Positions 13,463-52,327 of a stretch of DNA of 64,000 bases are shown here, in pieces. Positions within the stretch are counted from its first letter, which is position 1; each line of letters begins with the position of its first letter. Position numbers and translations under genes: made by a program. The stretch comes from an uncultured Gammaproteobacteria bacterium (GTDB lineage: Bacteria; Patescibacteriota; Microgenomatia; Levybacterales; UBA12049): the NCBI GenBank assembly GCA_964474445.1, contig CAYYSJ010000004.1, positions 185 to 64,184 on the forward strand, in the 5' to 3' direction. The notes below the pieces were generated by a model. It was not told the origin of the DNA and made no database searches. It was given only the letters and a program-made list of their open reading frames with translations.

Positions 13463-14032
13463 ATGAAGTGGGTAGCTCTCGGAATATTGTTGGTAGTCAT
13501 TATTGGAGGAGGTATATGGATCTTTTCACCTGGTAAAGATGTTCTATCTTCACAGGATAAAACAAAAGCTTTGCAGACACTGCTTGGAAGGGATGTTCAT
13601 GTAGATGCACAAAATCCTCAGGAAGTAGCATGGACAATGCACACAAATCAGTCTGTTCAATTTTCCTACCCTTCAGATGCAAAAATATATACTCAAGATA
13701 ATAGTGCAGCAATGAAAAATAAAGATATGGTAGATAGCTTTTCTTTTAGTAATCTTACTGATCATGTGACAGCAGTTGTTCAGGTGGTCAAATTTACTGG
13801 AGCACTTATAGAATATCCCGCAGTAAATTTTCGAATTTCTCAGTCAACACTGTATACAGCGACAACCTCTGGTACTCAAACAATTCAATTTATGAAGAAA
13901 GATGACACAGCAGAAAAGTCACTCTTTTTGAAAAAGAATGCTACTATTATTAGCATAGCTGTAACTGGCTATTCTATGCAAAAAGTAGACAATTTATACT
14001 CAAGAATTATTTCTTCGTTGAAGACGTTTTAA
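13463..14032 (+). CDS. Hypothetical membrane-anchored protein
   Basis: N-terminal TM helix (ALGILLVVIIGGGIWIF) then 165-aa soluble domain; no motif recognised. Confidence 0.5.
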   Translation: MKWVALGILLVVIIGGGIWIFSPGKDVLSSQDKTKALQTLLGRDVHVDAQNPQEVAWTMHTNQSVQFSYPSDAKIYTQDNSAAMKNKDMVDSFSFSNLTDHVTAVVQVVKFTGALIEYPAVNFRISQSTLYTATTSGTQTIQFMKKDDTAEKSLFLKKNATIISIAVTGYSMQKVDNLYSRIISSLKTF

Positions 14033-14920: not shown

Positions 14921-15022
14921 GGCATTAGTATAAACATTGCCCTAATTTACCTAATTGGTTTACATTCATTGAACATTCTATCCTTGAGGATTCTTTGGCA
15001 ACGAATTAGGTTAATTAGATTT

Positions 15023-16075: not shown

Positions 16076-16171
16076 ATACACAATTACCATTTTTTTCAAA
16101 GGGGAAAATAACAAGTGGGAGAGTGGGCTCCCTATATAAGAAAGTGTGGTTAGATGTCATGTCCAATATGT

Positions 16172-17275: not shown

Positions 17276-17352
17276 CATGTAATAAGCATTACATACAAAT
17301 TGTTTAGTTGTCAATAGGGTTATTCGTATACTACTTATATATTAAGAAGAGG

Positions 17353-18408
17353 TTAGAAAACTGCTGTTGCAATGACAGTGATGATATCTACGTAATCGCT
17401 TGCTATTTTTGCATTAATGCTTGCTTTTGCTTGTAATTGAAAGGTGCCGGTCCCACTTGTAACAGGTAAACCAGTTGAATCAAAAACAGCACGCTTATTT
17501 ACATTATCAAGAATTCCAACGGTATTTCCTGAGCCATTATATGGAGAGAGAATTTCCATTGGTCCACCAGAACTTTGTCCAACTGAGGTTGCTTGCAATC
17601 CATACCCTTCGGAAGTTGTAGACAAATCGCTACTCACTGCTGCTATGGTATATCCTCCTTGTGATGAAAGAAGGCCTCCATTGGTATCATAAGCATAAAT
17701 AGTTGTTCCACCAGTTCCGTTGGTTGAAATAGTGGCGGTTACAGTACTTGTTGACGTTTTGACAGTTCCTGGATCGAGTTGAGGAAAAGTAAGTGCATTA
17801 CTATTTAAAGAAAACGAAAACGTAGGACTGCCTGTTGAAACAATTGTTGCTGGGCCATATGCAGATTGCGTATAGTTGCCTTGTTTAGCAGAAACACTGA
17901 CGGTGTATGTTGTGGAGGGTGTAAGTCCAATCATCGTGAATCCACTCGCCCCCCAAACAGCATTTGTCTGCCAGACAGGAGATGGTCCTAATGTACCATC
18001 TGCTTGCACATATTGTGTTGAGCTACTGACTACTTTAATTGCATACTGAGTGTCACTTGGGTTATTTGCAGTATTAAGCGTGACACTTAATGAGTTATAC
18101 AAAGTGCCGCCATTATTGGAAACGGTTGGTGCTCCTGGAACGTTTGCTGTTAGGAGGTATGTGAGACCTGGTTGATTTGTGTAGCTTGTTGAGTTGAGAC
18201 TTCCTCCATCTAATTGGCCAGTATTGCCAAACAAGGAATAGGTAGTAGATGTCGCACCGCTTATACCACCAGACCCGAAATCATATGCTTTTATTTCATA
18301 GGTTGTACTTTGAGGGCCGGCATCCATTTGTACTGGAGGGGTAAATAAATAGATGAATAAACCAAAAAGTAAATAAACTGTGATAGCTTTAGAAATAATA
18401 TTACTCAT
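17353..18408 (-). CDS. Secreted Thr/Ser/Gly-rich pilin-like surface protein (C-terminal motif ASDYVDIITVIATAVF)
   Basis: Signal peptide MSNIISKAITVYLLFGLFIYLF; T/S/G-rich; conserved C-terminal strand. Confidence 0.6.
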   Translation of the reverse strand: MSNIISKAITVYLLFGLFIYLFTPPVQMDAGPQSTTYEIKAYDFGSGGISGATSTTYSLFGNTGQLDGGSLNSTSYTNQPGLTYLLTANVPGAPTVSNNGGTLYNSLSVTLNTANNPSDTQYAIKVVSSSTQYVQADGTLGPSPVWQTNAVWGASGFTMIGLTPSTTYTVSVSAKQGNYTQSAYGPATIVSTGSPTFSFSLNSNALTFPQLDPGTVKTSTSTVTATISTNGTGGTTIYAYDTNGGLLSSQGGYTIAAVSSDLSTTSEGYGLQATSVGQSSGGPMEILSPYNGSGNTVGILDNVNKRAVFDSTGLPVTSGTGTFQLQAKASINAKIASDYVDIITVIATAVF

Positions 18409-19471: not shown

Positions 19472-22400
19472 ATGAGAAAAACTTCCCTGAAAAAAATAAA
19501 GAAAGTTACAGCGAAAGATGCACGACAAAATATAAGAATTTCCTTGGAAAATCTTTTCCAACTTTTCTTCATGATTCCTGTGTGGGTGATTGCTATAGGA
19601 ACGGTAGAAGTAATGGTAGCAGGGGAAGTGCATGCAGCAAATAACAACCAACAAATTAACTTCCAAGGGAAAATTGTTAACAAAACTGGAGGGACAAACA
19701 TCACTGACGGAACATACAGCTTTACGTTTAAAATCTTTGATGCTTCAAGTGGAGGAAACCAGCTATGGTCCGAAACGCAAAGTAGTGTTTCCGTGACAAA
19801 TGGCATTTTTCAAGTTGCTCTTGGCTCTACAAGTTCATTGTCATCGTTAAATTTTACCAATCCAAATCTTTGGCTTGACGTTACGTTTAACGGAGAAACA
19901 TTTGGGTCGAGAATCCAACTTGATGCTGTGCCAACAGCAATCGATGCACTTAATCTGGATGGTGTAGTTGCAACGCAGTCAGCAAGTGGTTTTAATTTAG
20001 CTGGAGGAACAAGTACTGTCTCGACAGTAGCCTTTACAACATCAGGAAATACTCTTACAGTACAACCAGGGAATGCAGGATCCTTAACAGTTCAGTCAAA
20101 TGGTGCGAATGGATTAACACTTGATACAGGGTCTGCATCTTCAGTCAGTGTCGGTACCGCTAACGCAAGTTCCATAACAATTGGAAATACTTCTGCTTCC
20201 AATAATACGGCGATTACTCTTACAACAGGTGGATCAGGCATCATTACCCTCGGTAGTAATACGGGCGTGGGAAATGTTGTTGTCCAGCCAAATGCCGGAG
20301 GACAAGCAGCGCTTCTTATTAAAGACAATGGTGCAGGAGACTTGCTAACAGCATCAGCAGGAGCAACACCAAAATTTGTTGTCTCTAATGCGGGAGTACT
20401 TTCATTAATTGGAGGACAGACAACAGATCTTGATACGATTGGCACAACAAATACCCTCAAAATTGGCACCAATAACCAAAATGGTTTAACGCTTGGAAGA
20501 AATGGGGCAGCAACAACAATTGATGGGTTAGGGCTGACAATAGGACCAACCTCATGGACAGCAACTCCAACGATTTCTGGTCTTGTCACCGCATCAAGTG
20601 GTATTTCACTTGCAGCAGGACAATCCTATACAGGCGCTGGTCTTGTTACGCTTTCTTCAGGTGCGGGTGCAGCATTAACGATTGATTCGGGGACAACAGG
20701 TGCACTGAATCTTGGTACAGGGGCAAATGGAAAAACTATTACTATTGGCAATACCGCGGCAAATACAGCACTCACTTTGACAACAGGGGGATCAGGCATC
20801 ATTACCCTCGGTAGTAATACGGGCGTGGGAAATGTGGTTATCCAGCCAAATGCAGGAGGGCAGGCAGCTTTAGTTGTGAATGACCAAGGAGGGGGAGATA
20901 TCTTTACTGCGTCTTCATCTGGAACAACACGATTGAGAATCTCAAGTACTGGTGGAGTTTTGTTTCAAGGAGATACCCTTACTTCCATTGGCAGTGGTGC
21001 TTCAGGAAATGGAAGTAATGCCGTTGAGAATGCTCTTGGAGACGAAGGAAGTATGGTGCCAAACGCTGGATTTGAATCAGCAATGAGTAACGCAATAGCG
21101 GATGGATGGTTTCCTGCAGCAACGACATCCGCTGGTGTCTTTACCCACGACAACTCAACTGCTGCAAAAGGGCAAGCATCATTAAAAGTAACCATTACAA
21201 ATTCTACTGCTGTTATTTATTCCTCATGTGTCCCTCTTTCAGGAGCAGCAGGAAAATATACCCTCAACTACTACATTAAAGGAGCAGCACCACTAGCAAA
21301 TATAGGAGCATGGATTGATGGGTATACAAGCAAAGCAAATTGTCAATCAGATAACACACCAACATTGGCAGTTGCCCAAGTGGCACCTGCAACAACGTCC
21401 TGGACGAAACGTGGAACCGGTACAACTCCAATAGGAAGTTTTGGAGCTACCGCTACATGGGGACGAGTACATTTCTTAGTGTCTTGTACGAGTGGTTGTA
21501 CAGGATCTGTTACCAATATTGATGGAGTACGACTTACAGAGAGCGATACAGGGCAAGGTCTTGACTATGCTGAAAACTATCCTGCGGATCCTCATAACGT
21601 TCCACAACCAGGGGATATTGTCTCCCTGGAAGTATTGCATGGAGTTGCTGCGGTTATCCCAGCAAGTAAGCCGCAACAAGACAGCAGCGTGATTGGTGTT
21701 GTCTCAACAAATCCAGGACAGGTGCTTGATGATGGTTCTGTTACTGACCCTAAAGTAAGCATTGCTCTTGCAGGTCGTATTCCAACGAAAGTCAGTACAC
21801 AAAATGGCCCAATCCATATTGGAGATTATCTCACCTCTTCTAATATTCCTGGTGTTGCAGTCAAAGCTGTTACCGCGGGAGACGTTGTTGGGGTTGCTAT
21901 GGAAGACTATACAGAATCAGATGCCACAGTCATTGGAAAAGTCGTTATGTTTGTTAAAAATGGATACTATGATGGTGGTAGTGGCTTGGCTGATGCTCCC
22001 GCAGGTATGACCAGTTTTCTGGGCACACAGCAAGTGACACAAGCAAGTAATCAAAATACTATCCTTAGTTCGTCAAGTAAAAGTGTATCCACACAAAGTC
22101 TTTCAGAAAACTTTCTTTCATTATCTTCTAATGGGCTTGCGACAATCTCTGGGACACTTCGTGTGAAAGAGAATGGACTTTTTGAAGGCATTGTGACAGT
22201 TCTAGACACCCTTACAACACATAATTTGATTGTTAATAGTCTATCAGACTTTTTTGATACTGTTGTCTTTCATAAGAGCGTACAATTTGCGACAGCACCA
22301 ACGTTGCCTAAAGATACAGCAGGCTTTGCTGTTATCCATAGAGGAGCAAGAAATGTTGACGTTCACTTCTCTGGTTCTTATTCACAGACACCAATCATTC

Positions 22401-22705
22401 AAGCTTCTCTAACAACACATATCACTGCTGATGCCACAGCAAGCGCACAAGCTTTGTTAAAAAACAATTATGCATTTGTTGTAACGCATGAATCATCCAA
22501 TGGGTTTGGAATTCTTCTAAATAAAGAGGCTCAGGATGATGTCTATCTTTCTTGGGTTGCACTCTCAGTTGATAAACCAAATCTTTTTGAAAGTGCTTCA
22601 ACAGTCTCTGTGTTGGGAACACAAACAACACCAACACCAGTGCCATCAATTTTTACACCAAGTTTGACAAATATACAAAGTGCGAGTGGATCGGCAGGAA
22701 AATAA
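19472..22705 (+). CDS. Large repeat-containing surface protein (1077 aa), paralogous in N- and C-terminal modules to the 3854-aa protein
   Basis: N-terminal TM; domain 'INFQGKIVNKTGG…LWSETQSSVSVTNGIFQVALGS' homologous to post-TM domain of giant protein; tandem ~186-aa repeats (TLTTGGSGIITLGSNTGVGNVV[VI]QPNAGGQAAL x2); C-terminal 'DYAENYPADPHNVPQPGDIVSL…IGVVSTNPG…IALAGRIPTKVSTQNGPIHIGDYLTSSNIPGVAVKA' module. Confidence 0.8.
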   Translation: MRKTSLKKIKKVTAKDARQNIRISLENLFQLFFMIPVWVIAIGTVEVMVAGEVHAANNNQQINFQGKIVNKTGGTNITDGTYSFTFKIFDASSGGNQLWSETQSSVSVTNGIFQVALGSTSSLSSLNFTNPNLWLDVTFNGETFGSRIQLDAVPTAIDALNLDGVVATQSASGFNLAGGTSTVSTVAFTTSGNTLTVQPGNAGSLTVQSNGANGLTLDTGSASSVSVGTANASSITIGNTSASNNTAITLTTGGSGIITLGSNTGVGNVVVQPNAGGQAALLIKDNGAGDLLTASAGATPKFVVSNAGVLSLIGGQTTDLDTIGTTNTLKIGTNNQNGLTLGRNGAATTIDGLGLTIGPTSWTATPTISGLVTASSGISLAAGQSYTGAGLVTLSSGAGAALTIDSGTTGALNLGTGANGKTITIGNTAANTALTLTTGGSGIITLGSNTGVGNVVIQPNAGGQAALVVNDQGGGDIFTASSSGTTRLRISSTGGVLFQGDTLTSIGSGASGNGSNAVENALGDEGSMVPNAGFESAMSNAIADGWFPAATTSAGVFTHDNSTAAKGQASLKVTITNSTAVIYSSCVPLSGAAGKYTLNYYIKGAAPLANIGAWIDGYTSKANCQSDNTPTLAVAQVAPATTSWTKRGTGTTPIGSFGATATWGRVHFLVSCTSGCTGSVTNIDGVRLTESDTGQGLDYAENYPADPHNVPQPGDIVSLEVLHGVAAVIPASKPQQDSSVIGVVSTNPGQVLDDGSVTDPKVSIALAGRIPTKVSTQNGPIHIGDYLTSSNIPGVAVKAVTAGDVVGVAMEDYTESDATVIGKVVMFVKNGYYDGGSGLADAPAGMTSFLGTQQVTQASNQNTILSSSSKSVSTQSLSENFLSLSSNGLATISGTLRVKENGLFEGIVTVLDTLTTHNLIVNSLSDFFDTVVFHKSVQFATAPTLPKDTAGFAVIHRGARNVDVHFSGSYSQTPIIQASLTTHITADATASAQALLKNNYAFVVTHESSNGFGILLNKEAQDDVYLSWVALSVDKPNLFESASTVSVLGTQTTPTPVPSIFTPSLTNIQSASGSAGK
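20215..20300 (+). repeat. Intragenic near-identical repeat, copy 1
   Basis: 47-bp core 20231-20277 (ggatcaggcatcattaccctcggtagtaatacgggcgtgggaaatgt) is identical to the copy at 20789-20835; flanks near-identical. Confidence 0.8.
20773..20860 (+). repeat. Intragenic near-identical repeat, copy 2 (558 bp = 186 codons downstream)
   Basis: See copy 1. Confidence 0.8.
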
Positions 22706-24755: not shown

Positions 24756-25538
24756 TTATTGTGTAGAAAGAGTGGGAGATTTGAATGCTGAGGAGAAAAA
24801 CGATCGCACAGAAGGTTTGTAGTCATATGCGTCAATTGACTTAAGCCAAAGCTTAATAAGATTAGGAATATTCTTGAGAGTTGTTTTGGCTGTTGTCTGA
24901 GCGATTCGTCTATACTGTAGGGTAAAAGGAAGGTTGGTAATTTGACCATACTGAATAAGTTTGATAAGGATGTCTGAATACATCATATCCTTTTCATTGG
25001 TATTGAACTTCAATAAGTCTTTGGGGAGAAGTAATTTGTTAATCATCATAGATTCAAAGTTAATAGAAACAGTGTGTAGTGGCTTGTGATAGAGGGCATC
25101 GTATTCTTGAGGAAATCCAGTTTTACCTAGCTTTTTATTGTTTGCGTTGACTATCGTACATTGTACTCCAACAGCAACAACCTTTTCATTATCCAGAAGG
25201 AATTTCACTTGTTTGGTGAAGCGTTCTTTATAAACACTATCTTTTGCATCCATCATTGCGAGGAATTGCCCTCTTGCTCTTCTGAGAGCACGATTGAGAG
25301 TGATAGCCTTGCCATAGTGCTTTACATTACGATATATTTTGAGACGTTTATCAAATTTTCTGTAGAATTTAAGGATTTTCCATGAATCGTCTCGTGAGAA
25401 ATCATCAATTGCGATAATTTCAATATTACCATAGTTTTGAGACAGAAGGCTATCAAGACATGCAGGCAGAAATGAAGCTGCAGTAAAAACTGGAAGCAAT
25501 ACAGAAACTAACGGTTTATGGTCAACTAATGTATTCAT
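24756..25538 (-). CDS. Family-2 glycosyltransferase (GT-A fold)
   Basis: 'VSVLLPVFTAASFLPACLDSLLSQNYGNIEIIAIDDFSRDDS…' (DXD-type GT2 N-terminal signature). Confidence 0.8.
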   Translation of the reverse strand: MNTLVDHKPLVSVLLPVFTAASFLPACLDSLLSQNYGNIEIIAIDDFSRDDSWKILKFYRKFDKRLKIYRNVKHYGKAITLNRALRRARGQFLAMMDAKDSVYKERFTKQVKFLLDNEKVVAVGVQCTIVNANNKKLGKTGFPQEYDALYHKPLHTVSINFESMMINKLLLPKDLLKFNTNEKDMMYSDILIKLIQYGQITNLPFTLQYRRIAQTTAKTTLKNIPNLIKLWLKSIDAYDYKPSVRSFFSSAFKSPTLSTQ

Positions 25539-25685
25539 AGTGCGGGCAGAGTTCTGCAAAGCAGATAAGGCAGGAAATGTAGTTAGAGCAGTTTATTCAA
25601 TGAAAAGAGTCTACCAAAGAAGGGATATCTTGTCAAATTTTGAAGCTATCTGGAAGCAATAGACGGAGTTCCTTACAAAAAAGGT

Positions 25686-29066: not shown

Positions 29067-29067
29067 A

Positions 29068-35312: not shown

Positions 35313-35384
35313 TCGGGAATATGGGCCAGGAGTAGGTCGGTAATACGCCTCATTCGCATTGAGGAGATGGGCGGTTCAATTCCG
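35313..35384 (+). tRNA. tRNA-Ala (anticodon CGC)
   Basis: Manually folded cloverleaf: acceptor GGGCCAG/CTGGTCC with G3:U70 Ala identity pair, AC stem cctca/tgagg, loop ttCGCat, T-loop TTCAATT. Confidence 0.75.
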
Positions 35385-40762: not shown

Positions 40763-43700
40763 TTAGTTGATAATAAGCCAGTTAAAGGTGGTATCAATAT
40801 ATTGTTGGACTGGGATGCCCACTGTAAAGGACTTCCCACCAACTTGTCGAAGAAGATATGGTGTATAGGTCGTCTGGCCAACAGGCGTAATATAGATAAG
40901 AGACTTATCTGTCACCAATGGGTCATCAATAGTGACTTCCGTCTGGTGTGCTTTAATAGCTGCAGTACCAGCAGAGCCAGTTGCAACTACTTCTTTATCA
41001 CTCATTGCCAGAGCTGGTTGTACTGCATTGAAGTTAAGCTTTGCGATATTTGCTGCTCCAGATGCGATGACATTTCCAAGCTGGTCTATGTTGAAGATAC
41101 CAGAACCAGATGCATTCTGAACATTAAGAGTACTGGTTGCAAGAGCTGAGGCAGATGCTGAATTATCTCCAAGTCTTAAAGTGAGGTCTTTGTTATTAGC
41201 TAGTGGGGTAATAACATCTGCAGCCAAATTCTTTGCAAAGACTGCATTTCCTCCAACAGTTAAGTTACCATTGGTATCAATTGCGACAAGTCCTCCTTCA
41301 AAGACAACGTTTCCTTGTGCAAGACTTTGGATTTGGAATGTTCCACCTAAGACATTGACGGAATTGGCAGCGAGTATCAGTTGTGTTCCAATTGCCAATT
41401 GTCCCGTCACTGTCGTATCGGCAAGGGAAGTGGTACCAGTTGAGACAAGTCCCTGACCAAAGGTTGCCGTTGCTGCAGAGAGGTTTGGCACATATGCTAA
41501 GAAGCCAGAATACGAGGCTATGTTGGCATATCCTATCTGAGGACTTAGCAATCCTGAATTCGTGCTGCTAATAGAACTAGAGCCTATAACTGTATTCATC
41601 GGAGTAACGTTAGCAGATGGTGTGGCAAAGTAAATATTGGTGATATTTGTGATGTTTTGAGCAGATAATGTACCCACAGTTGCTTGAAGTCCAACAATGC
41701 TGTTAGCCTCAATTCTATTGGCGTGAAGTGTGCCAGAGACCGTAGCATCGCCATTTACTGCAAGATTTTGTGAGTTTAATTTTCCAGAAAATGTTGCATT
41801 ACCTGAATTATCGAAGCTAGCCACGGTTTGCTGTGAAATGGAATTCTTCACGCTTAGCCTGGAGTTTTCCAGGTTAAAAGCGATAGCTGAGGTAGACGCA
41901 AGTGGAGAAATAAGATTGGTGTGAATCTGGTCGACTTGACCAATGGGGGAGAGTGTTCCGTTTCCCCGTCCAGCCAGAACATCATTTACAATACCGGCAA
42001 CATAGTCATGTAGACTTTGTCCAGCAATAGAGACATTGTTGGTTGTAACAGCCAGACTCCCTGTAAGAACTTGTTGTGCTTGAACAGATCCTGCTCGAAG
42101 ATTCCCAACAACCAGCTCTAAGAAAGCACCCATTCGTGATACCGGATTGCCTAACACATCATTTAAGCTGTAATAGTGAGGAATAGTAAAGTCTGCAGAT
42201 GGAGAGGCATCAGTAATCTGCAGATCTCCAGTTGTAGCAAGGTAGACTTGTGGATCATACCAAGTTGATGTAGCATAAACATAGACTTGTCCACAAATTA
42301 CATTTGCTGGAGTTCCTGCAGGACAGGAGACAATCCCAACTTCTCCTGGTTCTCCATTTGAAGGGTCAAAGTTTTGCATTGCTTTCCCAACAATAAATCC
42401 TGCTTGAGTTGCTTTCATCCCATATCCTGCGATATTACTTGATGTAATAGCATCACCAGTTTTAATTGGGCCATTAATGGTAGAAACATAAACGGGTGCA
42501 CGACCAGCCAAATCAATTGGAGGACGATTGCTAGGAGTAATAGTAGAATTCTTACTTACAGTGACATGGTTTTCTTCAATAATAAGTGCTGGATGAGTTG
42601 AAGCAACACCTAATATTGCATGAGAGTAGGCTGTAGTAGTTTTTTGTACTAGTTTGCCGTTCGTAGATTCAGTTGTCCGTTGTGCTGCAGAAACGGATGC
42701 ATCGTAGTTTGTAATATCTATACCATTCCATGTCTTATCTGGTGAAGTTTCCACAATTTCACCAGGAGTGATAATTTGGTTCGACTTGTAAATTTCTGCG
42801 TAGTCAAAACTATGCCCAGAACCATCTAGGAAAACTGTTCCACCTCTCCAATTGATAAAAACGGGAGCAATACTCGTACAAATATTTACTCCCTGTAAAT
42901 ATCCACCACCATTGCTATTATCAGCGCCCATGTATAAGGTGTAGTTACCACAACCTCCACCATTTGCATCAATTTCAACACCATTATTTGCATGTTCATT
43001 GTTATTCCTATTACCAGTGTTATGATTATTAATATCTACCCAGTCTGCAGTGCTGTCATTCCCTATATTTACTTGGCTATCATTTCTAACACCAAAAACA
43101 TAACCATTGTTTCTATTATAGAGTCCAAAAACAGTGCCTCCTAAGCCTCCTACACCTGGTCCTAATGCCCACACATGGTCATTGCCGTTTGTTGAGGTTG
43201 GATTGCTTCCCACAGCTGTTGCTCCACTAATAAAAGCAATACTCGCTTCACTATTACTGCCTGTATCTGCAACTTGGAATACCCCCCATGGAGATGTCGT
43301 ATTCACAACAACAGTTTTTTGATCTGCTCCATTACCATTAATATATACCTGTTGTGTTGGATTAGTTGTTCCAATACCTACGTTGCCAGAACTATTGATC
43401 CATAAGGCATTATCATGGAAGGACTCGCTGTAGGTATTCGCATTCAACGATGTAGGTAGAACAGCAAACAGATTTTGCCATGCATCGCTACCACTTGCAG
43501 TATTATGGTAAAGGAAATTCCAGTTTGCATTTGCGCTTTCATTTGTTCCTCTTTCGTTGAAAAAATATCTGTTTAGATCTAGCTCATCACCAAAGATAAC
43601 TTGGTTGACACTCCAATTACCATTTCTATTTCCTCGTAATTCTAAGGTGGGAGCTCCAGAAGATTGGTATAATTGCAATTGATAGTTGGGATTCGCAGTC

Positions 43701-46700
43701 CCTATCCCTACTTGCCCATTAATAAGTGCCATTGTTGAACTTCCTGCTCCTCCATTGGTGTTGAACAATAGGTGTTGACTTGTTCCCTGTACTCTTAAGA
43801 CTAAATCATTTGCAATTGTATCGGTTGAATATTGACCACCTGAAGTTGCTAGTCCAAGTAGTCCTTCTACTGTGCCAGAGTTGTCTATAGCTATTCTTGG
43901 TGCATTTGTTCCGTTGAGGGTGATACCGGTGGCTACAGTCGTTGTATTTATATATAAGCTGTCAGTTGGATTCGTTGTCCCTATACCAACATTTCCTGCA
44001 ACGACAAGAGATGTTCCGGATGCTGCTGGATCTAAGAAGTAATTGGTGTTCTGTAAATCTTTAAATGAGGATGCTGTGATAACACCAGTATTACTTAATA
44101 TAAACTGTGTTGCTCCAGATGCTGAAGCTGTCATGATATCTCCTGCACCAGGCTGGTTAACCGTGATTGCTGCATTAACTCCTGTTGTATCTATGTTAAG
44201 AATAGTATTCCCAGATGCATTCTGAAATTGCATTGCAGTTGGGGAGTTGACAAGGGAGCGGGAGAGAAGATTACCATTACTATCAACTCGGAATGCGTCA
44301 GCAAATCGAGCAGAAGAGGTTGCTCCAAAAGCAAGATTATCAAGTCTTGTTGAGAGTTGATTTGTCACTCGAAGGACAGAGTCAATATTCACATTAGACT
44401 GGGTAAGATTTGTGCCAAATGGATTGTAGGACGATGCAAGAACTTCTTTGAGAAGGGTATCTTGTGTTTCCATCCACGTGTTTCCTGATCCTGCATTATT
44501 GGATCCGATAATAAGTCCTATGCCATTGCCATAGGATTGGCCAGCAGCAATACTTTGAACAAAATTATTATTGACACTTGTACTCCATGCTGTACCAACA
44601 TCGTCTTTAGTATTGATAGAAGTTGAATATAAGTCGGTTACTGTATCTGAATCAAGCCCAATAACAGAAACACCCCCGCCTTGAGTGCCGACATAAAGCT
44701 GACCGTTCTGCATATTTGCAGCAACTGCTGAAACATTGGAGTTTCCGTTTGCCAATTTCTGATTTGAGTCTGCTCCTGTTACAACTCCTCTGATTGTTTT
44801 ACTGGTATGATTTTGTAAAGCATGATATCCAACTTGATACATATGGATAATTGCTGAAGGAGTAAGAGCACTTGCTTTCACAAATGGTCCATCGATAGAG
44901 CCAGTAAACTTAGTTGATCCATCTCCGCCTGCCCCAATGCCGAAATTAGCTGTCCCAACTACAATAGAGCCTGAGGTTGTGAGCGAGCCAGCTAGGATAC
45001 CATCCCGATAGAGTTTGAAGGTTGTTCCGTCGTATGTTACCACAGCAAAATGCCAGTTATTATCATTGGACGTTTGAGTATCATCAATAATTCTTGTGCC
45101 TCCATTATTGATGGCTGCTCTCAGTTTACCAGCAGCAAGATCACCAATAGACAAAAGGTATGCAGGGGTTATTGAAGAGCCATCCCATTTAGTGACAATC
45201 CTTCCAGTGTTACCACTTGTTTTGTACCATGCTCCGTAAGACCAGGTCGTACCTCCAGAGTCAAGCTTAGATGCCCCTCCACAAGCAGCATTAGTACAAG
45301 ACAAATAAGCGGTTGACCCGTCAAACGTTAACGCTGTCCCCCTCACACCTGATGCAGAATAGGTAACCGATCCATTTGCCGTAAGGGTGATGCCTTTGAC
45401 TGATGCATCGTTGATATTTCCTGATGTTTCGTTGAATGGCCACATCCCACGTGTATCTCCCACCATATCATCAGTAATATAGTTACTGTTGTAGTACTTT
45501 ACAGAAGCGTTGGTTGGATCTCCTTTCTTGAGCTGGAAAGCCATAACAGATCCATTACTACCTTGAGCTCCAAGATAGACAGTATCAGAGATGCCATCGA
45601 CGATTGATGTACCTTCTGTCACAACCATAGAAGTTGGAACAAAGGTTGCGGATGTACTTGCAGGCCCGGCAGTCAAGGAAAGGGAAGAGAAAGTATTATT
45701 ATCTGTTGTTGTTGCACCATAATTTGTTGTTCCACCCTGATTAGCATAAACCTCATCAAAAAGAGTGTTATTGCCAGAACCATTCTGTGCGTTGTACTTA
45801 ATCTTTAAAGCATAGTTAGAAGCAGTCGATGAATTACCAACAGTGGCATATAATGTTCCTCTTGAGGTAAGCCAGACATTTTGAGCATTAGCATTTGGAC
45901 CGAAGTTGGCAACAAGGCTCAGTAGTGACTCATTAATAAGCGTAACAGCTCCATTAGTGCCACCGGCCGTTGCAAGGACAATATACGTTTGACCATTTAT
46001 CACGTTCACTGCCACATCATTGATGGTTGCATTTGGTGTATTGAGATAGATATTAGGCATCAAAGTGTAGGTTGTTGTGCTATTTCTTCCTGAGATGTTG
46101 GTATTTGAATTCACAAAGTATTGTCCAGCATTACTGGAAGATAGGATCTTATAAGAAGTATCATGCTTGAAATCAATAACGTAGAAGCCTCCTACTGAGC
46201 CATTATTCCCAAAGTAAATTTCTCCATTAAGAGCGGCAATACTGGAGCCAGTAGAATTAGTGGTTGGACCAATCATTTGCTCGGTTGCTCCAGAGCCTTT
46301 GTTAAATGCCATCCATAAAGAATTATCTTTTGCATCAAAAATATATAAATTAGTTGTGGTGACGACGAGGATTGCTTTTCGTGGGAAAGCCTGCTGGCCA
46401 CATCTGGTATTTGTCCCAATAACACAGGTATCAGCTGTGGTTCGAGACTCGTTGTACCAAGAAGATGCGGGAGCCTTGTCATCATTTGTCCAACGACCAC
46501 CATCTGAGTCTTTTGAGGTATCATAGAAAAGAACTTTTTGGATATTTGAAATACTTTGGAGATTTTTGTGCCCACCAATAGTGAGGTCTCGATTATCAAG
46601 AGTCATGTATGAATGATCTGATGAGGCAACATTAATAACCTTGCTCGCAGCAGGGAGAACTCCTGCATTGTTATTAACTTTTGGATCATTTGGTGTAATC

Positions 46701-49700
46701 GCAACAGTTCCAATATTGACGCCTGATCCAAATACCTGGAAATGAGCAGAGGCAGTTGAATTACCCCCTATTACTAAGTCATTGTTTGTGTTTGAAGGAG
46801 CAAGTACGCCACCATTGGAAAGTTGCCAGAATCCAGCAATACCGCCATTGGCAGGAGTGACAATTTGTCTGACATAAAGAGTATTCCACTCTTTACCGCC
46901 TTGTGTTGGATCAGAGCCTAAATTATAGGTATCTGTTACATTTGGAATAAGACTATTTTTAATAGTACCGTCATTAGCAATGGTAAAAAGAGGAGTTCCG
47001 GATGTAGATGCAGTAAAGACGTCTCCTAGCCCAGATTGATTAACAACAAAGGTCGCATTGCCAAGAGAGTTCTTTGAAATAGTAAGCCCACTTGAAGCAA
47101 GGGGGGATGTTGTCCCTATTCCAACACTACCACCGTTATTGATGTATAAGCGACTAGCATTATTTAGTACATCATAAATATTAAAGTAGTCAGCAGTTGT
47201 ATTTGGGTCATACACTTCAAGTTTAAATCCACGGAACTGATTGTTTTGTGGGGATATACGTATTGACCCATAATTATCTGTTACTGGTCTTTGTCCGATT
47301 ACAAGGTTATCAAAATTAGGATCAATAGTACTGGCTGTTGCTGATATTATCGCTTGCCCTCGAACATCAAATTTTGCACCAGGGGCGTTTGTCCCAATGC
47401 CAATATTACTGCTTGCTGCAAGGAAGAGAGATGGAGTGGAAAGTGTTATTCCTTTATCTCCACCAACTGAATTATAGAAGGCAAGAGTACCGCCATTAAG
47501 GGAGTTAACTGCAGTTGCAGAGCCTCTAAAGGTTATATTTCCTGATGTACTTGCTGTTCCAGCTGGAACTGTTCCTAAGTCATTTGTATAGGAATTGCTA
47601 AAGATTTGGAACTTTGCAGAAGAAGTAGACGTCCCACCAATTGCTAGGTCATCGGTAATAGTAAATGGTGAAACAACCTGATTAAACCTCTGCCAGAGAC
47701 CATCATAAGTCCCAGATATAAAAAGATTTGTGATGTAGGCTGAGCCAAAGTTGTTTGTTGCTGAGCCTAAGTTAATAGTTGCAGCGGTTGGAATAATACT
47801 ATTTGAGAATTGGCCATTTGGGAAAATAGTATTTGTACCTGATGAGCCAAGGATGAGATTTCCTCTAAAGGTATTTGTTCCATTTGCATTTCCCAGATTT
47901 ATTCCATTTGTTGCCCCTCCACCGATATTAAGAGTAGTTGCTGTAGTATCAAAGAGCCCAACTGTGCCTTGAGTTGTTTTAATATTTGCACCACCTAATG
48001 TGAGGTCCCCATTGTTATTCAACTGAAGCTGAGTTGTGAGGCCACTATCACCACCCACTGAAGTTTGAACTTTCAAGATACTACCGTTTAATAAGTTAAC
48101 ATTAGTCATTGCTCCTCTAAAGGAAAGTCCTCCGGATGAGGTGGCTGTGCCTGCTGTGTTGATTCCTTGGGTGGTGGCAAACACTTGCCAAGGAGTGGCA
48201 GAGCCTGTTGCGTTACCACCGACTGCTAAGTCATTCCATGCGTTGACGGGGGAGAGGACGTTACTTGTTAATTGCCAGAACCCTGATGTTCCACCGCCAA
48301 CTGGTGCAATGAAGTTATTTGCATAGACAGTTCCCCAATAGTGAGTTGGATCACCAAGGTTAATCGTTGTTGATGAAGGTAAAACATTCTGGTTAACCAG
48401 GCCGTTGATGGTTACTGTGTTGCTTGTATTTGTTCCTAGAGTAGTATTCCCATTCACAGACAAAGCTCCTTGCACTGTTGTTGTTCCGCTTACATTGCCA
48501 ATATTGAGTGTTGTTGCTGCTCCACCAAAGGTGATTGAGGTTGGAGTACCAAAGAGTGTGAGTGTTGAACGATTATCATCAATAGTTGGTGTTCTAAAGG
48601 TTGTCGTTCCCGTTGTTGCACCAATCGTGAGTGTTGATGCAGAACCTGCAAAGGTAAGATTAGATGGAGTCCCAAGTAGAGTAAATACACTTGTTGTTGT
48701 ATCAAGAGTTGGTCCATTGACTATGACATTGCCAGTAGCATTATGAGGAGTAAGAGTAATATCACCTGTTGTGCTCCCGCCAACTGTAAGGTTTGCAAAG
48801 TTCGCTGTCTGAATGGTTCCATTTGCTGTTATATAGGTAGAATTTCCGTTCAATCCGCTTGAAACAGATGCAGTTGGTGTTCCAGATCCTATCATGTTCA
48901 GGACAGCAAATTTTGCGGAATTGGTTGCGCTGCCACCAACAAACAAATCAACTGTGCTATTAACCGGATAAATTGCACCGTTAATAGTATCAAGCGTCCA
49001 CCAGCTTCCATTTGTTCCAGTACCGCAACTTCCCCAAGTAGGATTTGCTCCACCAATAAGACATTGGTTCGTTCCTCCTGTTGGTGTTTGTTTAAACAGT
49101 CCAGTAGTATCTGCGTAAAGAACACCACCATTATTGGTATAATTTGTAGATAAAATAGCCCCAGAGTTTTGGAGTCTGAATTTGGTTGTACCAGAAGATG
49201 AGGCCGTTAATAAATCGCCAGCAGAATTCAAAACATTAATAATTACCCCTGCATTTCCTAACGTATTCTTTTCTATATCTAAAGCAGTTGCAGTAAAAGG
49301 TGCAGCTCCAATCCCAAGTGTTCCAGTAATTTGTGATGCCCCAGCACCATTGACATTAAGTGTCCCAGCAATTTGTGATGTTCCCGTACCGTTGACAGTA
49401 AGTACTCCTGCAATGGTGAGAGCACCAGCATTGGTAATCTTATTTGAAGAACTGAAAAATTGGATGTCTCCTCCTGTTGTATTTGTGCCAAGCGTGATTG
49501 TTCCTGTTCCGGCTAAGATAGCAAGAGTATTATTGCTTGTTGTCGTAATTGTTGGATTCGTACCGGTAAGAGCAACCGTTGCAGCAGCAAGGCTGACTGT
49601 TCCTAACCCATTATTTGGTGAAAGGGTAATACCACCAGTTGTATTACCTCCAATGGTAAGTGGCAAACTATTCGTTGTTTGGACACTGCCTGTAGTGTTA

Positions 49701-52327
49701 AAAGTGAGGGTACCTGCACTTGTTGCATTTCCCGTAGTGGCAAAGATTTGAAATCGAGCAGTGTTTGTTGCTGTTCCACCGATTGCCAGATCGTCAGTGA
49801 TATTGGTAGGAGCAAGTACTCCGAGTGTTCTTTGCCAAAAACCAGATATATTTCCACCGGAAATAATGTTTTTCACATAGAGATTATTCCATTCGATAGA
49901 GGATGTTCCCAGATTATATGTATCTGTTGCCCCTGGGATAATATTTCCGTTGACTGTCACGCTGCCTGATCCATTATTCGGAGATACTATAATATTACCT
50001 GTTGAGTTTCCACCAAGGGTGAGTGGTTGATTTTTTGTTGTTTGGATAATACCTGCACTATTGAGCGTTAGGTTTCCAGCAATAGAAGCGGTTGGAGTTC
50101 CAGAGCCAGGTGTGTTATTTAAGAAAGCAAAATTAGCAGAGGAAGTAGATGTTCCCCCTAAAAAGACATCTAGAGTGGAGTTAAGAGGGTAGAGTGAGCC
50201 ATTTGAAAGAGTCCAAAAGTTTGAAGCTGCACAAGGACTCCAAGTTGGTGCTGTTCCTCCGTTGGAGGTAAGACATTGTCCTATGCTTCCTGCTGCTGTC
50301 TGCAGGAAGAGTCCTGTTGCGTCAGTATAAATAACTCCTCCTGCTGTTGTGTAGTTGGCTGATGATATAAAGCCTGTGTTGCCAACAGTAAATTTAGAAA
50401 CCCCACTACTTGACGCGCTAATAAGTGGCCCTGTTCCGGTTTGATTAATAGTGACTGCAGATGCAGCACTTGTTGCCAAAACAGCAAATAAGCTATCGAC
50501 CTCAACAGCGTGAGGTGCTGAAGGGAAATTACCATTGAAGGTAGTATTTTGGAGTGGTTTTTGTACGTCTATAATACCTGATCCATCTGGAGCGAGAGTA
50601 ATATTACCATTTGTTCCAGAGTTGGTATTGAGAGCGAGAGTATTGCCAGCAAGAGTAAATTGTCCACTGGTTGACTGAAATGTTGTAGATGCTCCAATAC
50701 TTAAGTTTCCAGAAGAATTGAGGGCTAAGATAACATTCGTTGTACCTGCTCCTGATTGGGTGATAGGGGGCATCCCTTGGAGTGTTTCTGAGTTGGTTGC
50801 ATAAGCAACTGTTGCCAATTGTTGACGGGGCGTTAATTCTGGTGTTGATCCAACAGTGATACCCAAATACAAGTTCTGATTGTTAGCAAACAATGATTGT
50901 GGAATTGTTGTGCCTCTTCCTAAGAGTATGGAAAAAACACCATTATTGTCAGGAGTAACACCATTTACTTCTTGCCAAAGCAATGCTGAGGCTGAGGACG
51001 AAGGGTCGGAATAAATCGCAAATCGCAAGTTGGTACTTGCGGTAATGGGAGAATTTTGACTATCTGTCAGTCGTCCTTGGAAGGACATGATTCTGGGCGG
51101 TGCTGTTGCTGCCAATGTTGGAGCTTCTTTTGGTTTGGCAATAAAACTATTATAGAGACCAAATCCAATGGCGGTACAAAAGACAATAAGAATTGCCCAG
51201 TTAAAGTAATGAGCTAAAGCATATGTGTGATACTTTCTGTACCAGTTAGGGCGGGTGTAGCGAACATGGTGCCATGCCTTTCTATACCAAGGGAAATGCT
51301 GTATAGATATTGCTTGAGGAGCATAGAAAGTCTTTGGGAGATTATGAGTCTGAAGCAATGGGTTATGAGCAATATTTGCAATTTGAGATTTAAGATTTGA
51401 AATTCCCTTAACATTCGTAAAAAGAGGTTTGCCTTGTATCTTCCACAGCTGTTTATGAATTAAAAGAACTCCTTTGGTGATTGGTATAATCATAACTGTC
51501 TCAAGAAGAAAATCTATTCCTCTTTCCATTTTTTGCATAAGTCGTAGAGGAGGGAAGGAAGAGTACTTCTTAACGATTAAAGGATTGTTGTCTTTTGATC
51601 CATTTTGACTAGTATTTATACTATTTTCTAGCAGAGGCTCCGGGTTACTGCTATTAAGAACTGGCGTTTCATTTAGGTTGCCAGGAATTGCTATCTGTGA
51701 AGAAAGGTATCCTTGCGTATTTGCCCAGGCAAGATATTTACGAAGAGAAGAAAGTTTTCGGTTAATTGAGGTGGCAGAAAAGGCTCCTGTTTCGAGAAGT
51801 CTCAACTTGTACTCTTCCAGAAGAGGGTAAGAAATATAATGAAAAACATTTTTCTCATCTACGCCTGCAGCTTCTTTTATCCTTGAAGTTTCTTCAACCC
51901 ATCTCAAGAACTGTTTCACATCAATGATATAGTTTTTTATAGTAAGACGACTTGCGTTATAGACATATAAAAAATCTTTAAATTCTTTTATTCTCCAGGG
52001 ATCTTGGTGAACTTGTGCTACTCGAGAGACAACTTCATCAAAAGGAGACTGGGCAATAACTCCTTGCATTTTTAGTGCGTGAAAAAACTTATGAAGTGAA
52101 GAAATATGCCTTTCGATTGATCTCACGGAATACATAGAAGATTTTTGAGCTTTAAATTGATTAATAACAGCAAGTGTTACTTCATTAGGTTGAAATGGTT
52201 TGGCAAGTTGTGCTTCGCACCAGGAGATAAAGTGTTTTACATCTACGATGTAATTCTTCACTGTTGAGTGTGATGGGGTTGGTTTTTGTAAAAGTAAGAA
52301 ATTTTTAAAATTTTGAATAAATTCCAT
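40763..52327 (-). CDS. Giant (3854 aa) surface protein: two cytoplasmic tyrosine-recombinase core-binding (SAM-like) domains + TM + repeat-rich extracellular region + conserved C-terminal module
   Basis: Uninterrupted 11.5-kb ORF. Residues ~1-210: tandem 'S..TVKNYIVDVKHFISW…SIERHISSLHKFFHALKMQGVIAQSPF' / 'LTIKNYIIDVKQFLRW…SINRKLSSLRKYLAWANTQGYL' (Phage_integrase N-terminal SAM-like pattern). TM 'YALAHYFNWAILIVFCTAIGFGLY' at ~aa 375. Then Gly/Thr/Asn/Ser-rich beta repeats incl. recurring 'TDTYNLGS…W..LY……GFWQ' motif (x4). C-terminal 'DYAEIY…PGEIVETS…LGVASTHP…IDLAGRAPVYVSTINGPIKTGDAITSSNIAGYGMKA' shared with 19472-22705. Confidence 0.85.
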   Translation of the reverse strand: MEFIQNFKNFLLLQKPTPSHSTVKNYIVDVKHFISWCEAQLAKPFQPNEVTLAVINQFKAQKSSMYSVRSIERHISSLHKFFHALKMQGVIAQSPFDEVVSRVAQVHQDPWRIKEFKDFLYVYNASRLTIKNYIIDVKQFLRWVEETSRIKEAAGVDEKNVFHYISYPLLEEYKLRLLETGAFSATSINRKLSSLRKYLAWANTQGYLSSQIAIPGNLNETPVLNSSNPEPLLENSINTSQNGSKDNNPLIVKKYSSFPPLRLMQKMERGIDFLLETVMIIPITKGVLLIHKQLWKIQGKPLFTNVKGISNLKSQIANIAHNPLLQTHNLPKTFYAPQAISIQHFPWYRKAWHHVRYTRPNWYRKYHTYALAHYFNWAILIVFCTAIGFGLYNSFIAKPKEAPTLAATAPPRIMSFQGRLTDSQNSPITASTNLRFAIYSDPSSSASALLWQEVNGVTPDNNGVFSILLGRGTTIPQSLFANNQNLYLGITVGSTPELTPRQQLATVAYATNSETLQGMPPITQSGAGTTNVILALNSSGNLSIGASTTFQSTSGQFTLAGNTLALNTNSGTNGNITLAPDGSGIIDVQKPLQNTTFNGNFPSAPHAVEVDSLFAVLATSAASAVTINQTGTGPLISASSSGVSKFTVGNTGFISSANYTTAGGVIYTDATGLFLQTAAGSIGQCLTSNGGTAPTWSPCAASNFWTLSNGSLYPLNSTLDVFLGGTSTSSANFAFLNNTPGSGTPTASIAGNLTLNSAGIIQTTKNQPLTLGGNSTGNIIVSPNNGSGSVTVNGNIIPGATDTYNLGTSSIEWNNLYVKNIISGGNISGFWQRTLGVLAPTNITDDLAIGGTATNTARFQIFATTGNATSAGTLTFNTTGSVQTTNSLPLTIGGNTTGGITLSPNNGLGTVSLAAATVALTGTNPTITTTSNNTLAILAGTGTITLGTNTTGGDIQFFSSSNKITNAGALTIAGVLTVNGTGTSQIAGTLNVNGAGASQITGTLGIGAAPFTATALDIEKNTLGNAGVIINVLNSAGDLLTASSSGTTKFRLQNSGAILSTNYTNNGGVLYADTTGLFKQTPTGGTNQCLIGGANPTWGSCGTGTNGSWWTLDTINGAIYPVNSTVDLFVGGSATNSAKFAVLNMIGSGTPTASVSSGLNGNSTYITANGTIQTANFANLTVGGSTTGDITLTPHNATGNVIVNGPTLDTTTSVFTLLGTPSNLTFAGSASTLTIGATTGTTTFRTPTIDDNRSTLTLFGTPTSITFGGAATTLNIGNVSGTTTVQGALSVNGNTTLGTNTSNTVTINGLVNQNVLPSSTTINLGDPTHYWGTVYANNFIAPVGGGTSGFWQLTSNVLSPVNAWNDLAVGGNATGSATPWQVFATTQGINTAGTATSSGGLSFRGAMTNVNLLNGSILKVQTSVGGDSGLTTQLQLNNNGDLTLGGANIKTTQGTVGLFDTTATTLNIGGGATNGINLGNANGTNTFRGNLILGSSGTNTIFPNGQFSNSIIPTAATINLGSATNNFGSAYITNLFISGTYDGLWQRFNQVVSPFTITDDLAIGGTSTSSAKFQIFSNSYTNDLGTVPAGTASTSGNITFRGSATAVNSLNGGTLAFYNSVGGDKGITLSTPSLFLAASSNIGIGTNAPGAKFDVRGQAIISATASTIDPNFDNLVIGQRPVTDNYGSIRISPQNNQFRGFKLEVYDPNTTADYFNIYDVLNNASRLYINNGGSVGIGTTSPLASSGLTISKNSLGNATFVVNQSGLGDVFTASTSGTPLFTIANDGTIKNSLIPNVTDTYNLGSDPTQGGKEWNTLYVRQIVTPANGGIAGFWQLSNGGVLAPSNTNNDLVIGGNSTASAHFQVFGSGVNIGTVAITPNDPKVNNNAGVLPAASKVINVASSDHSYMTLDNRDLTIGGHKNLQSISNIQKVLFYDTSKDSDGGRWTNDDKAPASSWYNESRTTADTCVIGTNTRCGQQAFPRKAILVVTTTNLYIFDAKDNSLWMAFNKGSGATEQMIGPTTNSTGSSIAALNGEIYFGNNGSVGGFYVIDFKHDTSYKILSSSNAGQYFVNSNTNISGRNSTTTYTLMPNIYLNTPNATINDVAVNVINGQTYIVLATAGGTNGAVTLINESLLSLVANFGPNANAQNVWLTSRGTLYATVGNSSTASNYALKIKYNAQNGSGNNTLFDEVYANQGGTTNYGATTTDNNTFSSLSLTAGPASTSATFVPTSMVVTEGTSIVDGISDTVYLGAQGSNGSVMAFQLKKGDPTNASVKYYNSNYITDDMVGDTRGMWPFNETSGNINDASVKGITLTANGSVTYSASGVRGTALTFDGSTAYLSCTNAACGGASKLDSGGTTWSYGAWYKTSGNTGRIVTKWDGSSITPAYLLSIGDLAAGKLRAAINNGGTRIIDDTQTSNDNNWHFAVVTYDGTTFKLYRDGILAGSLTTSGSIVVGTANFGIGAGGDGSTKFTGSIDGPFVKASALTPSAIIHMYQVGYHALQNHTSKTIRGVVTGADSNQKLANGNSNVSAVAANMQNGQLYVGTQGGGVSVIGLDSDTVTDLYSTSINTKDDVGTAWSTSVNNNFVQSIAAGQSYGNGIGLIIGSNNAGSGNTWMETQDTLLKEVLASSYNPFGTNLTQSNVNIDSVLRVTNQLSTRLDNLAFGATSSARFADAFRVDSNGNLLSRSLVNSPTAMQFQNASGNTILNIDTTGVNAAITVNQPGAGDIMTASASGATQFILSNTGVITASSFKDLQNTNYFLDPAASGTSLVVAGNVGIGTTNPTDSLYINTTTVATGITLNGTNAPRIAIDNSGTVEGLLGLATSGGQYSTDTIANDLVLRVQGTSQHLLFNTNGGAGSSTMALINGQVGIGTANPNYQLQLYQSSGAPTLELRGNRNGNWSVNQVIFGDELDLNRYFFNERGTNESANANWNFLYHNTASGSDAWQNLFAVLPTSLNANTYSESFHDNALWINSSGNVGIGTTNPTQQVYINGNGADQKTVVVNTTSPWGVFQVADTGSNSEASIAFISGATAVGSNPTSTNGNDHVWALGPGVGGLGGTVFGLYNRNNGYVFGVRNDSQVNIGNDSTADWVDINNHNTGNRNNNEHANNGVEIDANGGGCGNYTLYMGADNSNGGGYLQGVNICTSIAPVFINWRGGTVFLDGSGHSFDYAEIYKSNQIITPGEIVETSPDKTWNGIDITNYDASVSAAQRTTESTNGKLVQKTTTAYSHAILGVASTHPALIIEENHVTVSKNSTITPSNRPPIDLAGRAPVYVSTINGPIKTGDAITSSNIAGYGMKATQAGFIVGKAMQNFDPSNGEPGEVGIVSCPAGTPANVICGQVYVYATSTWYDPQVYLATTGDLQITDASPSADFTIPHYYSLNDVLGNPVSRMGAFLELVVGNLRAGSVQAQQVLTGSLAVTTNNVSIAGQSLHDYVAGIVNDVLAGRGNGTLSPIGQVDQIHTNLISPLASTSAIAFNLENSRLSVKNSISQQTVASFDNSGNATFSGKLNSQNLAVNGDATVSGTLHANRIEANSIVGLQATVGTLSAQNITNITNIYFATPSANVTPMNTVIGSSSISSTNSGLLSPQIGYANIASYSGFLAYVPNLSAATATFGQGLVSTGTTSLADTTVTGQLAIGTQLILAANSVNVLGGTFQIQSLAQGNVVFEGGLVAIDTNGNLTVGGNAVFAKNLAADVITPLANNKDLTLRLGDNSASASALATSTLNVQNASGSGIFNIDQLGNVIASGAANIAKLNFNAVQPALAMSDKEVVATGSAGTAAIKAHQTEVTIDDPLVTDKSLIYITPVGQTTYTPYLLRQVGGKSFTVGIPVQQYIDTTFNWLIIN

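Follow-up and report, generated by a model that had tools for sequence, protein, structure and literature searches.

The question raised by this locus is whether two giant open reading frames (ORFs) encode modular fibre proteins built from the same end pieces and, if so, what such proteins would do for a cell. The ORFs lie in a stretch of 64,000 nucleotides (nt), hereafter the window, taken from contig CAYYSJ010000004.1 (positions 185 to 64,184, forward strand; GenBank assembly GCA_964474445.1), which was deposited as an uncultured Gammaproteobacteria bacterium and is placed by GTDB in the Levybacterales of the Patescibacteriota. An earlier note, made from the sequence alone, had claimed that a protein of 1077 amino acids (aa) and one of 3854 aa share an N-proximal domain and a C-terminal module. 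Both ORFs exist as claimed, p1 at 19472-22705 (plus strand, 1077 aa) and p2 at 40763-52327 (minus strand, 3854 aa), the coordinates of the note covering p1 only. We consider p1 and p2 to represent two sister subfamilies within one very large family of Patescibacteria, whose members are surface proteins that resemble phage fibres and are anchored by the N-terminus, a reading to which we assign a probability of roughly 0.6. They follow a common plan, consisting of a signal or anchor helix, an Ig-like base domain, a variable middle rich in Gly, Ser, Thr and Asn (G/S/T/N), a G2-like auto-chaperone, a linker and a lectin-like terminal beta-sandwich, and the p2 type adds two cytoplasmic SAM-like domains before the anchor helix.

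The shared N-proximal domain comes after a hydrophobic helix in both proteins (aa 31-49 in p1 and aa 371-396 in p2) and occupies aa 58-170 of p1 (19643..19981, plus strand) and, as delimited by sequence comparison, aa 413-527 of p2 (50747..51091, minus strand). BLASTP aligned the two copies with 31% identity over 117 aa (E 3e-8, and E 3e-5 against all window ORFs), thus a common domain behind the transmembrane (TM) helix is indeed present. No third ORF in the window matched this domain or the C module described below, both being common to p1 and p2 only. The p2 copy aligned with the p1-type loci L003 and L012 at 38% identity (E 1e-17 to 1e-20), and in relatives the domain starts directly after a signal peptide that ends in A-x-A. 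At E<=0.001 a profile of the domain recovered 57,847 cluster representatives, of which 31,622 also pass E<=1e-10; in almost every case the match lies at residues ~20-170 of a protein of 150-3660 aa, and the alignment built from this profile contains invariant columns. The structural model (predicted local distance difference test, pLDDT, 78) is a generic Ig-like beta-sandwich without a specific structural relative; sequence matches were absent from the PDB and from 50,697 phage records. The domain may serve as a base, as an anchor or as a spacer.

The C-terminal parts are similar as well. Residues 693-859 of p1 and 3170-3375 of p2 are 29% identical (composition-adjusted E 5e-17), with the motifs DYAE (starting at D698 in p1 and D3175 in p2), GV[VA]ST.P and LAGR.P..VST.NGPI..GD..TSSNI.G in both. 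The module itself comprises aa 698-840 of p1 (21563..21991, plus strand) and aa 3175-3360 of p2 (42248..42805, minus strand; E 5e-33 with a local hidden Markov model), the latter with two insertions relative to p1. Module and motifs were therefore as described before, but the module does not end the proteins, since it is followed by 237 aa in p1 and by 494 aa in p2. When the last 401 aa of p1 were used as query, 61 relatives were found, in which a local profile outlines a module of ~148 residues that at times stands at the very C-terminus. Among 27 diverse copies, D-x-A-E, G..ST (as in GVVST.P), G..P (as in GR.P) and several glycines are invariant.

The best PDB matches of the C-module profile were residues 689-742 of phi29 gp12, the 'chaperon domain D4' of the Dpo31 tailspike, and 3gqh, the cleaved C-terminal fragment of gp12, residue 1 of which aligns with the Asp of the C module. 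In its mature form, gp12* extends to residue 691 (PMC6542822). The C-domain of gp12 is an intramolecular chaperone that is required for trimer assembly and is cleaved off after folding (PMC3357383). The Asp and Glu of the module align with 'sDFAEYFE' of gp12, so that D698 and E701 of p1 correspond to gp12 D692 and E695. This Asp, together with the Glu three residues on (S691|D692...E695 in gp12), is what we take to be the catalytic pair, following the G2 entry in MEROPS; the catalytic residues of the gp12 C-domain were reportedly described by Xiang et al. in 2009. An AlphaFold2 model of the C module (pLDDT 88.8) matches the fold of the gp12 C-terminal domain, a fold also found in trimeric capsid decoration proteins, and a comparison with BFVD gave 45 phage matches, including preneck-appendage and tail-fibre proteins. 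Because of the PDB profile matches, the alignment of the Asp with the first residue of 3gqh and the cleavage of gp12 after residue 691, the modelled C module is a phi29-gp12-type auto-chaperone fold and not the SH3/KOW-like barrel proposed earlier, whereas the proposed likeness to phage tail fibres and tailspikes is supported. By analogy, cleavage is predicted at L697|D698 in p1 and at F3174|D3175 in p2. Among the relatives, P0055 and P0036 reached 27.1 and 24.9 bits with Pfam Peptidase_G2 (PF11962; gathering score 25 bits), and precomputed annotations place this family in three p2 homologues. When p1 and p2 themselves were scanned against Pfam and PHROG, the shared modules had no match, one weak tail-fibre PHROG match (E 0.009) aside; neither protein matched Peptidase_S74 (PF13884), and a single-sequence search of the PDB returned a chance match only. 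The C module, from the Asp of D-x-A-E onwards, also occurs at 36-40% identity in virion or baseplate proteins of jumbo phages (PA5oct group) and on two IMG/VR contigs, L030 (IMGVR_UViG_3300020477_001008, 242 kb) and L031.

Searching with full-length p2 yielded 86 giant homologues of 2133-6048 aa (P0220-P0305), 82 of which have the N-domain, 81 the SAM-like N-terminus, 79 the terminal domain and 46 the G2-like module, and the tail behind the module is of nearly constant length (480-560 aa). Peptidase_S74 is annotated (precomputed) in 23 of the 86, with no overlap with the 46 proteins that carry the G2-like module. In the four S74 proteins that were scanned, the S74 domain sits 437-611 aa from the C-terminus, which is the position of the G2-like module, and across the homologues the slot filled by either domain lies ~450-650 aa before the C-terminus. 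Thus, two unrelated folds fill one and the same slot. All that G2 and S74 are known to have in common is that, in phage fibres, they act as chaperones that cleave themselves and nucleate trimers. Of the comparative arguments that the slot would have such a role in these proteins as well, their alternation is the strongest.

Beyond the C module, the tail of p1 (aa 841-1077, 21992..22702, plus strand) consists of a linker and a terminal beta-sandwich resembling H-type lectins (aa ~929-1030, nt 22256-22561), and the tail of p2 (aa 3361-3854, 40766..42247, minus strand) ends with a beta-sandwich (aa 3742-3854, nt 40766-41104, minus strand) that is conserved across homologues. The p1-type tail forms a family of its own in jackhmmer searches, and Pfam H_lectin (PF09458) was found in the last domain of 11 of 14 p1-tail relatives (24-42% identical to p1; best E 2.1e-9), p1 itself giving no H_lectin match at E<=1. 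The last ~110 aa of p2 were found at the extreme C-terminus of the 79 homologues mentioned above, and seven of 16 p2-type ends matched Pfam K1-lyase_C, the end domain of a Klebsiella phage tailspike. A profile made from p2-type ends alone misses the end of p1, and the link took iteration and profile-profile comparison. Since hhalign joins the terminal domains of the p2 type and the p1 type (probability 91.7%, E 7.6e-7), p1 and p2 probably share three modules, the third only distantly. Nor is the C module the terminal 'tip' suggested earlier; going by its homologues, it would serve in assembly and self-cleavage, and behind it come a beta-helix-like linker and a lectin-like end domain.

At its N-terminus, p1 has a signal or anchor region (aa 1-55, 19472..19636, plus strand; based on hydropathy and charge count) with a basic n-region, the hydrophobic helix and a possible signal-peptidase site, VHA|A. 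Homologues of p1 have the same N-terminal layout, with the AxA end directly before the N-domain. The public gene call of p1 (P0156, 1044 aa) begins at Met34 (19571 instead of 19472), which drops the basic n-region; a start at the upstream ATG at 19472 fits the signal peptides of the homologues better. The variable G/S/T/N-rich middle of p1 (19982..20965, plus strand) was delineated from the translation, a direct repeat and short matches to the 'GD..TAS.SG' units of p2, and contains a single internal duplication (20204-20402 and 20762-20960, 74% identity). It is followed by a conserved domain of ~190 aa (aa 499-692, 20966..21547, plus strand) that adjoins the C module and is kept next to it in 13 loci (36-65% identity). 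The profile of this pre-module domain had no Pfam or PDB match, and a reading of aa 499-692 as a jelly roll like carbohydrate-binding modules (CBM) 4/9, suggested by a 'PNAGFE..GW' motif, was dropped for lack of support from either database.

The N-terminal region of p2 (aa 1-370, 51218..52327, minus strand) is of a different kind, with two integrase-type SAM-like (core-binding) domains at aa 3-205 (nt 51713-52321, minus strand) followed by a basic juxtamembrane stretch. Pfam Phage_int_SAM_1 (PF02899) matches the former in two stretches (E 3.4e-17), as does SAM_4 (PF13495), and this N-terminus is kept not only in the 81 homologues counted above but also in L025, L027 and L014. Because the stretch before the strong TM helix (aa 371-396, 51140..51217, minus strand; hydropathy peak 1.96) is very basic, with six K/R and no D/E, the positive-inside rule places the N-terminus of p2 in the cytoplasm. 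Many p2 homologues are named 'site-specific integrase' or 'XerD' at NCBI/JGI (P0227, P0232-P0235, P0237, P0239, P0240, P0256, P0257 and others). These are giants of two to six thousand aa named for their two N-terminal SAM-like domains, and the names are misannotations, since the catalytic recombinase domain (PF00589, R-H-R-Y) is absent from p2 in a Pfam scan and from the precomputed domains of the 86 homologues. A speculative and rather improbable extension is that p2-type proteins are transmembrane couplers, in which one helix joins the extracellular fibre to two cytoplasmic integrase-type DNA-binding domains. If so, host contact or fibre assembly would be signalled to the chromosome, the protein acting as a ToxR-like regulator or as a DNA tether at the attachment site, and maturation or triggering would fall to the phage-type G2 or S74 self-cleaving module, following the logic of MYRF outside the cell.

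Between the shared modules the two proteins differ, as had been noted before, p1 having its one duplication and p2, in a middle spanning aa 528-3174 (42806..50746, minus strand), four repeat units and a LamG/ConA-like domain (aa 2357-2493, nt 44849-45259, minus strand; Pfam Laminin_G_3, E 8.6e-16). The unit 'TDTYNLGS..W..LY..GFWQ', of which at least four copies had been claimed, occurs exactly four times (aa 806, 1324, 1520 and 1803). The NLGS..GFWQ segments, located with a regular expression and MAFFT at nt 49832-49912, 48272-48358, 47690-47770 and 46823-46921 (minus strand), belong to units with 35-48% identity over ~120 aa and irregular spacing. That family members elsewhere keep the ends with other middles was confirmed. 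Among the 149 best N-domain proteins, 54 (824-3660 aa) have a G2-like module, 150-530 aa before their end, and the middles of the 86 p2 homologues range from 1002 to 4863 aa. Syntenic orthologues of p2 have middles of only 377 aa (L025), 305 aa (L027) and 283 aa (L014), compared to 2,641 aa in p2, the whole fibre being 1475 aa long in L025 and 1346 aa in L027, and p1-type orthologues range from 1024 to >3713 aa. Two family members each were found in L014 and in the metagenome-assembled genome (MAG) CAYMJR01. Since the middles of orthologues vary so widely in length, the middle evolves by large gains and losses. The cassette-like shuffling suggested earlier is not apparent as an ongoing process: the shared modules are only ~30% identical, the p1 and p2 genes have no DNA repeat of at least 40 nt in common, and there is no evidence of an active cassette or shufflon. 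Inserts of a binding type are LamG in p2 and Kelch, CBM and FG-GAP in relatives.

Both ectodomains consist of ~45% G/S/T/N with few charged residues, and this composition, together with the N-terminal helix and the positive-inside rule, suggests that p1 and p2 are located at the cell surface. By analogy with gp12, the K1F endosialidase and pb1 of T5, we propose that the chain is exported from the N- to the C-terminus while the N-terminus keeps it at the membrane. The auto-chaperone near the C-terminus would emerge late and trimerise as its phage homologues and the capsid cement proteins of the same fold do, which would nucleate C-to-N folding of three chains into a fibre. The module would then cleave itself directly before the invariant Asp, at the bonds predicted above, thereby freeing or loosening the conserved tail and exposing the upstream domain. 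The resulting fibre would bind host cells or glycans, and its reach and specificity would depend on the variable middle. We give the self-cleavage step about an even chance, perhaps slightly better. Attachment to a host or to glycans would be the most likely role of these proteins, and it fits the episymbiotic lifestyle of the phylum, the binding-type inserts and the length variation. Essential predicted adhesins are mentioned in PMC11665869; the literature searched contained no description of this family.

Several points weigh against this model. The profile link between C module and gp12 is marginal (E 0.006-0.03) and covers the first ~55 residues only, and the C-terminal parts of p1 and p2 gave no PF11962 match even at E<=10. 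The module is internal, unlike that of gp12, and some relatives have two or three C modules in tandem. The chief objection to cleavage is that it would cost the best-conserved part of the protein, including the lectin-like domain, and a retained structural role fits at least equally well. Furthermore, release in gp12 needs ATP, which is absent outside the cell, and the trimeric fibre is itself drawn by analogy.

In the most probable of the alternatives, family and fold are the same but the G2-like module no longer cleaves and forms a permanent trimerisation knot inside the fibre, with the lectin-like terminal domain as the working distal tip. Same-fold capsid cement proteins and the uncleaved C-domain of the P22 tailspike could serve as models. 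We regard such a knot as a possible but less probable arrangement, because D-x-A-E is invariant in 27 divergent sequences and aligns with the cleavage-site Asp of gp12 and the Glu three residues on, because the slot alternates with S74, which has another fold and shares with G2 the self-cleaving chaperone activity, and because a tail that is conserved is ill suited to be a tip that determines host specificity. It is also conceivable, though we consider it unlikely, that p1 and p2 are structural parts of the envelope, such as S-layer-like or cell-wall-spanning fibres, and not adhesins for host attachment. The near-universal presence of the family with conserved synteny, a neighbourhood rich in small surface proteins, family-2 glycosyltransferases (GT2) and multi-TM proteins, and the name 'S-layer family protein' of one homologue would agree with this, but middles that range from 283 to 4,863 aa between orthologues and LamG, Kelch and lectin-type inserts are usual in adhesins and receptor-binding proteins but not in proteins that form a lattice.

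The phage character of the C module and of the end domains, which are of the tail-fibre or spike type, and the weak matches in jumbo phages and on the two IMG/VR contigs could also mean that p1 and p2 are tail-fibre genes of a phage or prophage in the chromosome. This is very improbable, as both proteins have an N-terminal membrane helix, the neighbours are housekeeping and envelope genes without phage structural genes nearby, the loci are syntenic across many Patescibacteria genomes, and the N-domain is unmatched among the phage records searched. Finally, ectodomains so rich in G/S/T/N, with several short 'GD..TAS.SG' matches that are weak, might share motifs by chance. The evidence argues decisively against such low-complexity coincidence: the composition-adjusted E-value of 5e-17 for the C module and the 3e-8 for the N-domain, the large families with invariant columns recovered by the profiles of both modules, and the confident fold model of the C module with its specific structural match leave hardly any room for it.

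Comparison with known systems indicates what is particular about the fibre-like reading preferred here. The pre-neck appendage protein gp12 of Bacillus phage phi29 (PF11962; PDB 3GQH, 3SUC, 6QZ9) has the fold and the aligned Asp/Glu in common with the C module of p1 and p2, but the latter are cellular, N-terminally membrane-anchored, up to 3854 aa long and below the Pfam threshold, and the domain that forms the extreme C-terminus of gp12 is internal in them. Peptidase_S74, as in the K1F endosialidase and the L-shaped tail fibre pb1 of T5, is a C-terminal self-cleaving trimerisation chaperone for beta-helical fibres that occupies the same slot as the p2 module, yet it differs in fold and family from the G2-like module of p1 and p2. 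An S74-type chaperone at work in a membrane-bound cellular protein with a DNA-binding domain is the eukaryotic MYRF ICA domain; cleavage of MYRF frees the DNA-binding part, whereas in p2 the module and the SAM-like domains are on opposite sides of the membrane. Trimeric capsid decoration or cement proteins (such as the HFTV1 capsid stabilisation protein, 8QSY; the base of phi29 gp8.5, 6QYY) have the fold of the C module without the D-x-A-E context, fibre fusion or cleavage. Trimeric autotransporter adhesins such as YadA and Hia are functional analogues, being long, modular and length-variable trimeric fibres with a C-terminal domain that nucleates the trimer. There is no homology, and their anchor is a C-terminal outer-membrane beta-barrel in diderms, unlike the N-terminal helix of p1 and p2 in a presumably monoderm-like envelope. 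Tyrosine recombinases (XerD, phage integrases) have an N-terminal SAM-like core-binding domain of the kind found twice in p2, where it is joined to a TM helix and a giant ectodomain, without a catalytic domain.

The 64-kb window is part of a cellular chromosome, and no phage structural genes were seen in it. It starts with the 3' two thirds of a 23S rRNA gene (1-3184, matching model positions 1001-2925 over 3184 nt), which contains ~1.26 kb of insertions with an ORF for a LAGLIDADG homing endonuclease (1014-1547, plus strand; Pfam E 3.8e-22), an arrangement typical of Patescibacteria. The other RNA genes are a 5S rRNA and two tRNA-Ala genes (anticodons CGC and GGC), which are adjacent at 35323-35571 (plus strand) with ~100 nt between them. 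Protein genes include those for ribosomal protein S1, RadA, a CHASE histidine kinase, Rho, an M23/LysM peptidase, GT2 enzymes and leucyl-tRNA synthetase (LeuRS). Because of the rRNA, S1, RadA, Rho and LeuRS genes and the synteny across Patescibacteria MAGs, the p1 and p2 genes are cellular and not of phage origin. The loci recovered with the C module all belong to Patescibacteria MAGs (Levybacteria/Levyibacteriota, Paceibacterota, Saccharibacteria and Gottesmanbacteria). Nine records with Patescibacteria-type fibre genes are labelled 'uncultured Gammaproteobacteria bacterium' (L001, L006, L009, L012, L013, L015, L020, L021 and L027). This label looks wrong in view of those genes and of L001, which is syntenic with the window at 11-24 kb (72-89% amino-acid identity). 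The DNA of the window therefore comes most likely from a Levybacteria-like organism within the Microgenomatia. GC skew is positive in all 2-kb bins but one, whatever the orientation of the genes, and the cumulative skew climbs almost steadily; a published Microgenomates genome is reported to have an unusual strand composition disparity (PMC7143001).

Directly downstream of p2 lies a gene for a 690-aa protein with ~10 TM helices and a C-terminal tetratricopeptide repeat (TPR) region (38111-40183, minus strand), homologues of which also adjoin the fibre genes in L025, L027, L014, L007, L004, L008 and L024 (26-45% identity). Its TM part matched no Pfam family, and assignment to Wzy_C or another family failed. 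Possibly the protein serves the fibre as a dedicated partner, for instance in its glycosylation or export. The order of LeuRS, two small surface proteins, fibre gene and 10-TM/TPR gene at the p2 locus is common to L025 and L027. Small surface-type proteins of 250-380 aa with an N-terminal signal helix are encoded at 14000-18408, 30869-31615 and 54451-56215 (minus strand) and at 52863-53747 (plus strand); several have a C-terminal TM helix, and weak Ig/Fn3-like matches were found. These runs look like a surface-protein neighbourhood, as they lie around both fibre genes, with synteny in L001/L013 and L025/L027. Near p1, two GT2 genes enclose a gene for a 1126-aa protein that has ~10 TM helices and matches no Pfam family (24756-29970, minus strand), possibly an envelope glycan or glycosylation locus.

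All domain types discussed here are already known from phages. What appears to be new relative to the literature searched is their predicted assembly into N-terminally anchored cellular giants, the size that the family reaches in Patescibacteria, the alternation of G2 and S74 and the putative cytoplasmic double SAM-like head of the p2 type. Patescibacteria (the candidate phyla radiation, CPR) account for a large part of bacterial diversity, and they live in attachment to other cells by means that are mostly obscure. For a protein family that is among their largest, the present analysis provides an anatomy that can be put to the test, with exact predictions of where the chains would be cleaved and which residues would be catalytic. 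It also names candidate binding domains and corrects a widespread misannotation, as the giant 'site-specific integrases' are not recombinases. The proteins would be cellular fibres built on the principle of phage tail fibres, with interchangeable G2 and S74 self-chaperones and middles that vary 17-fold in length between orthologues, and they raise the question why a surface fibre has DNA-binding-type domains in the cytoplasm.

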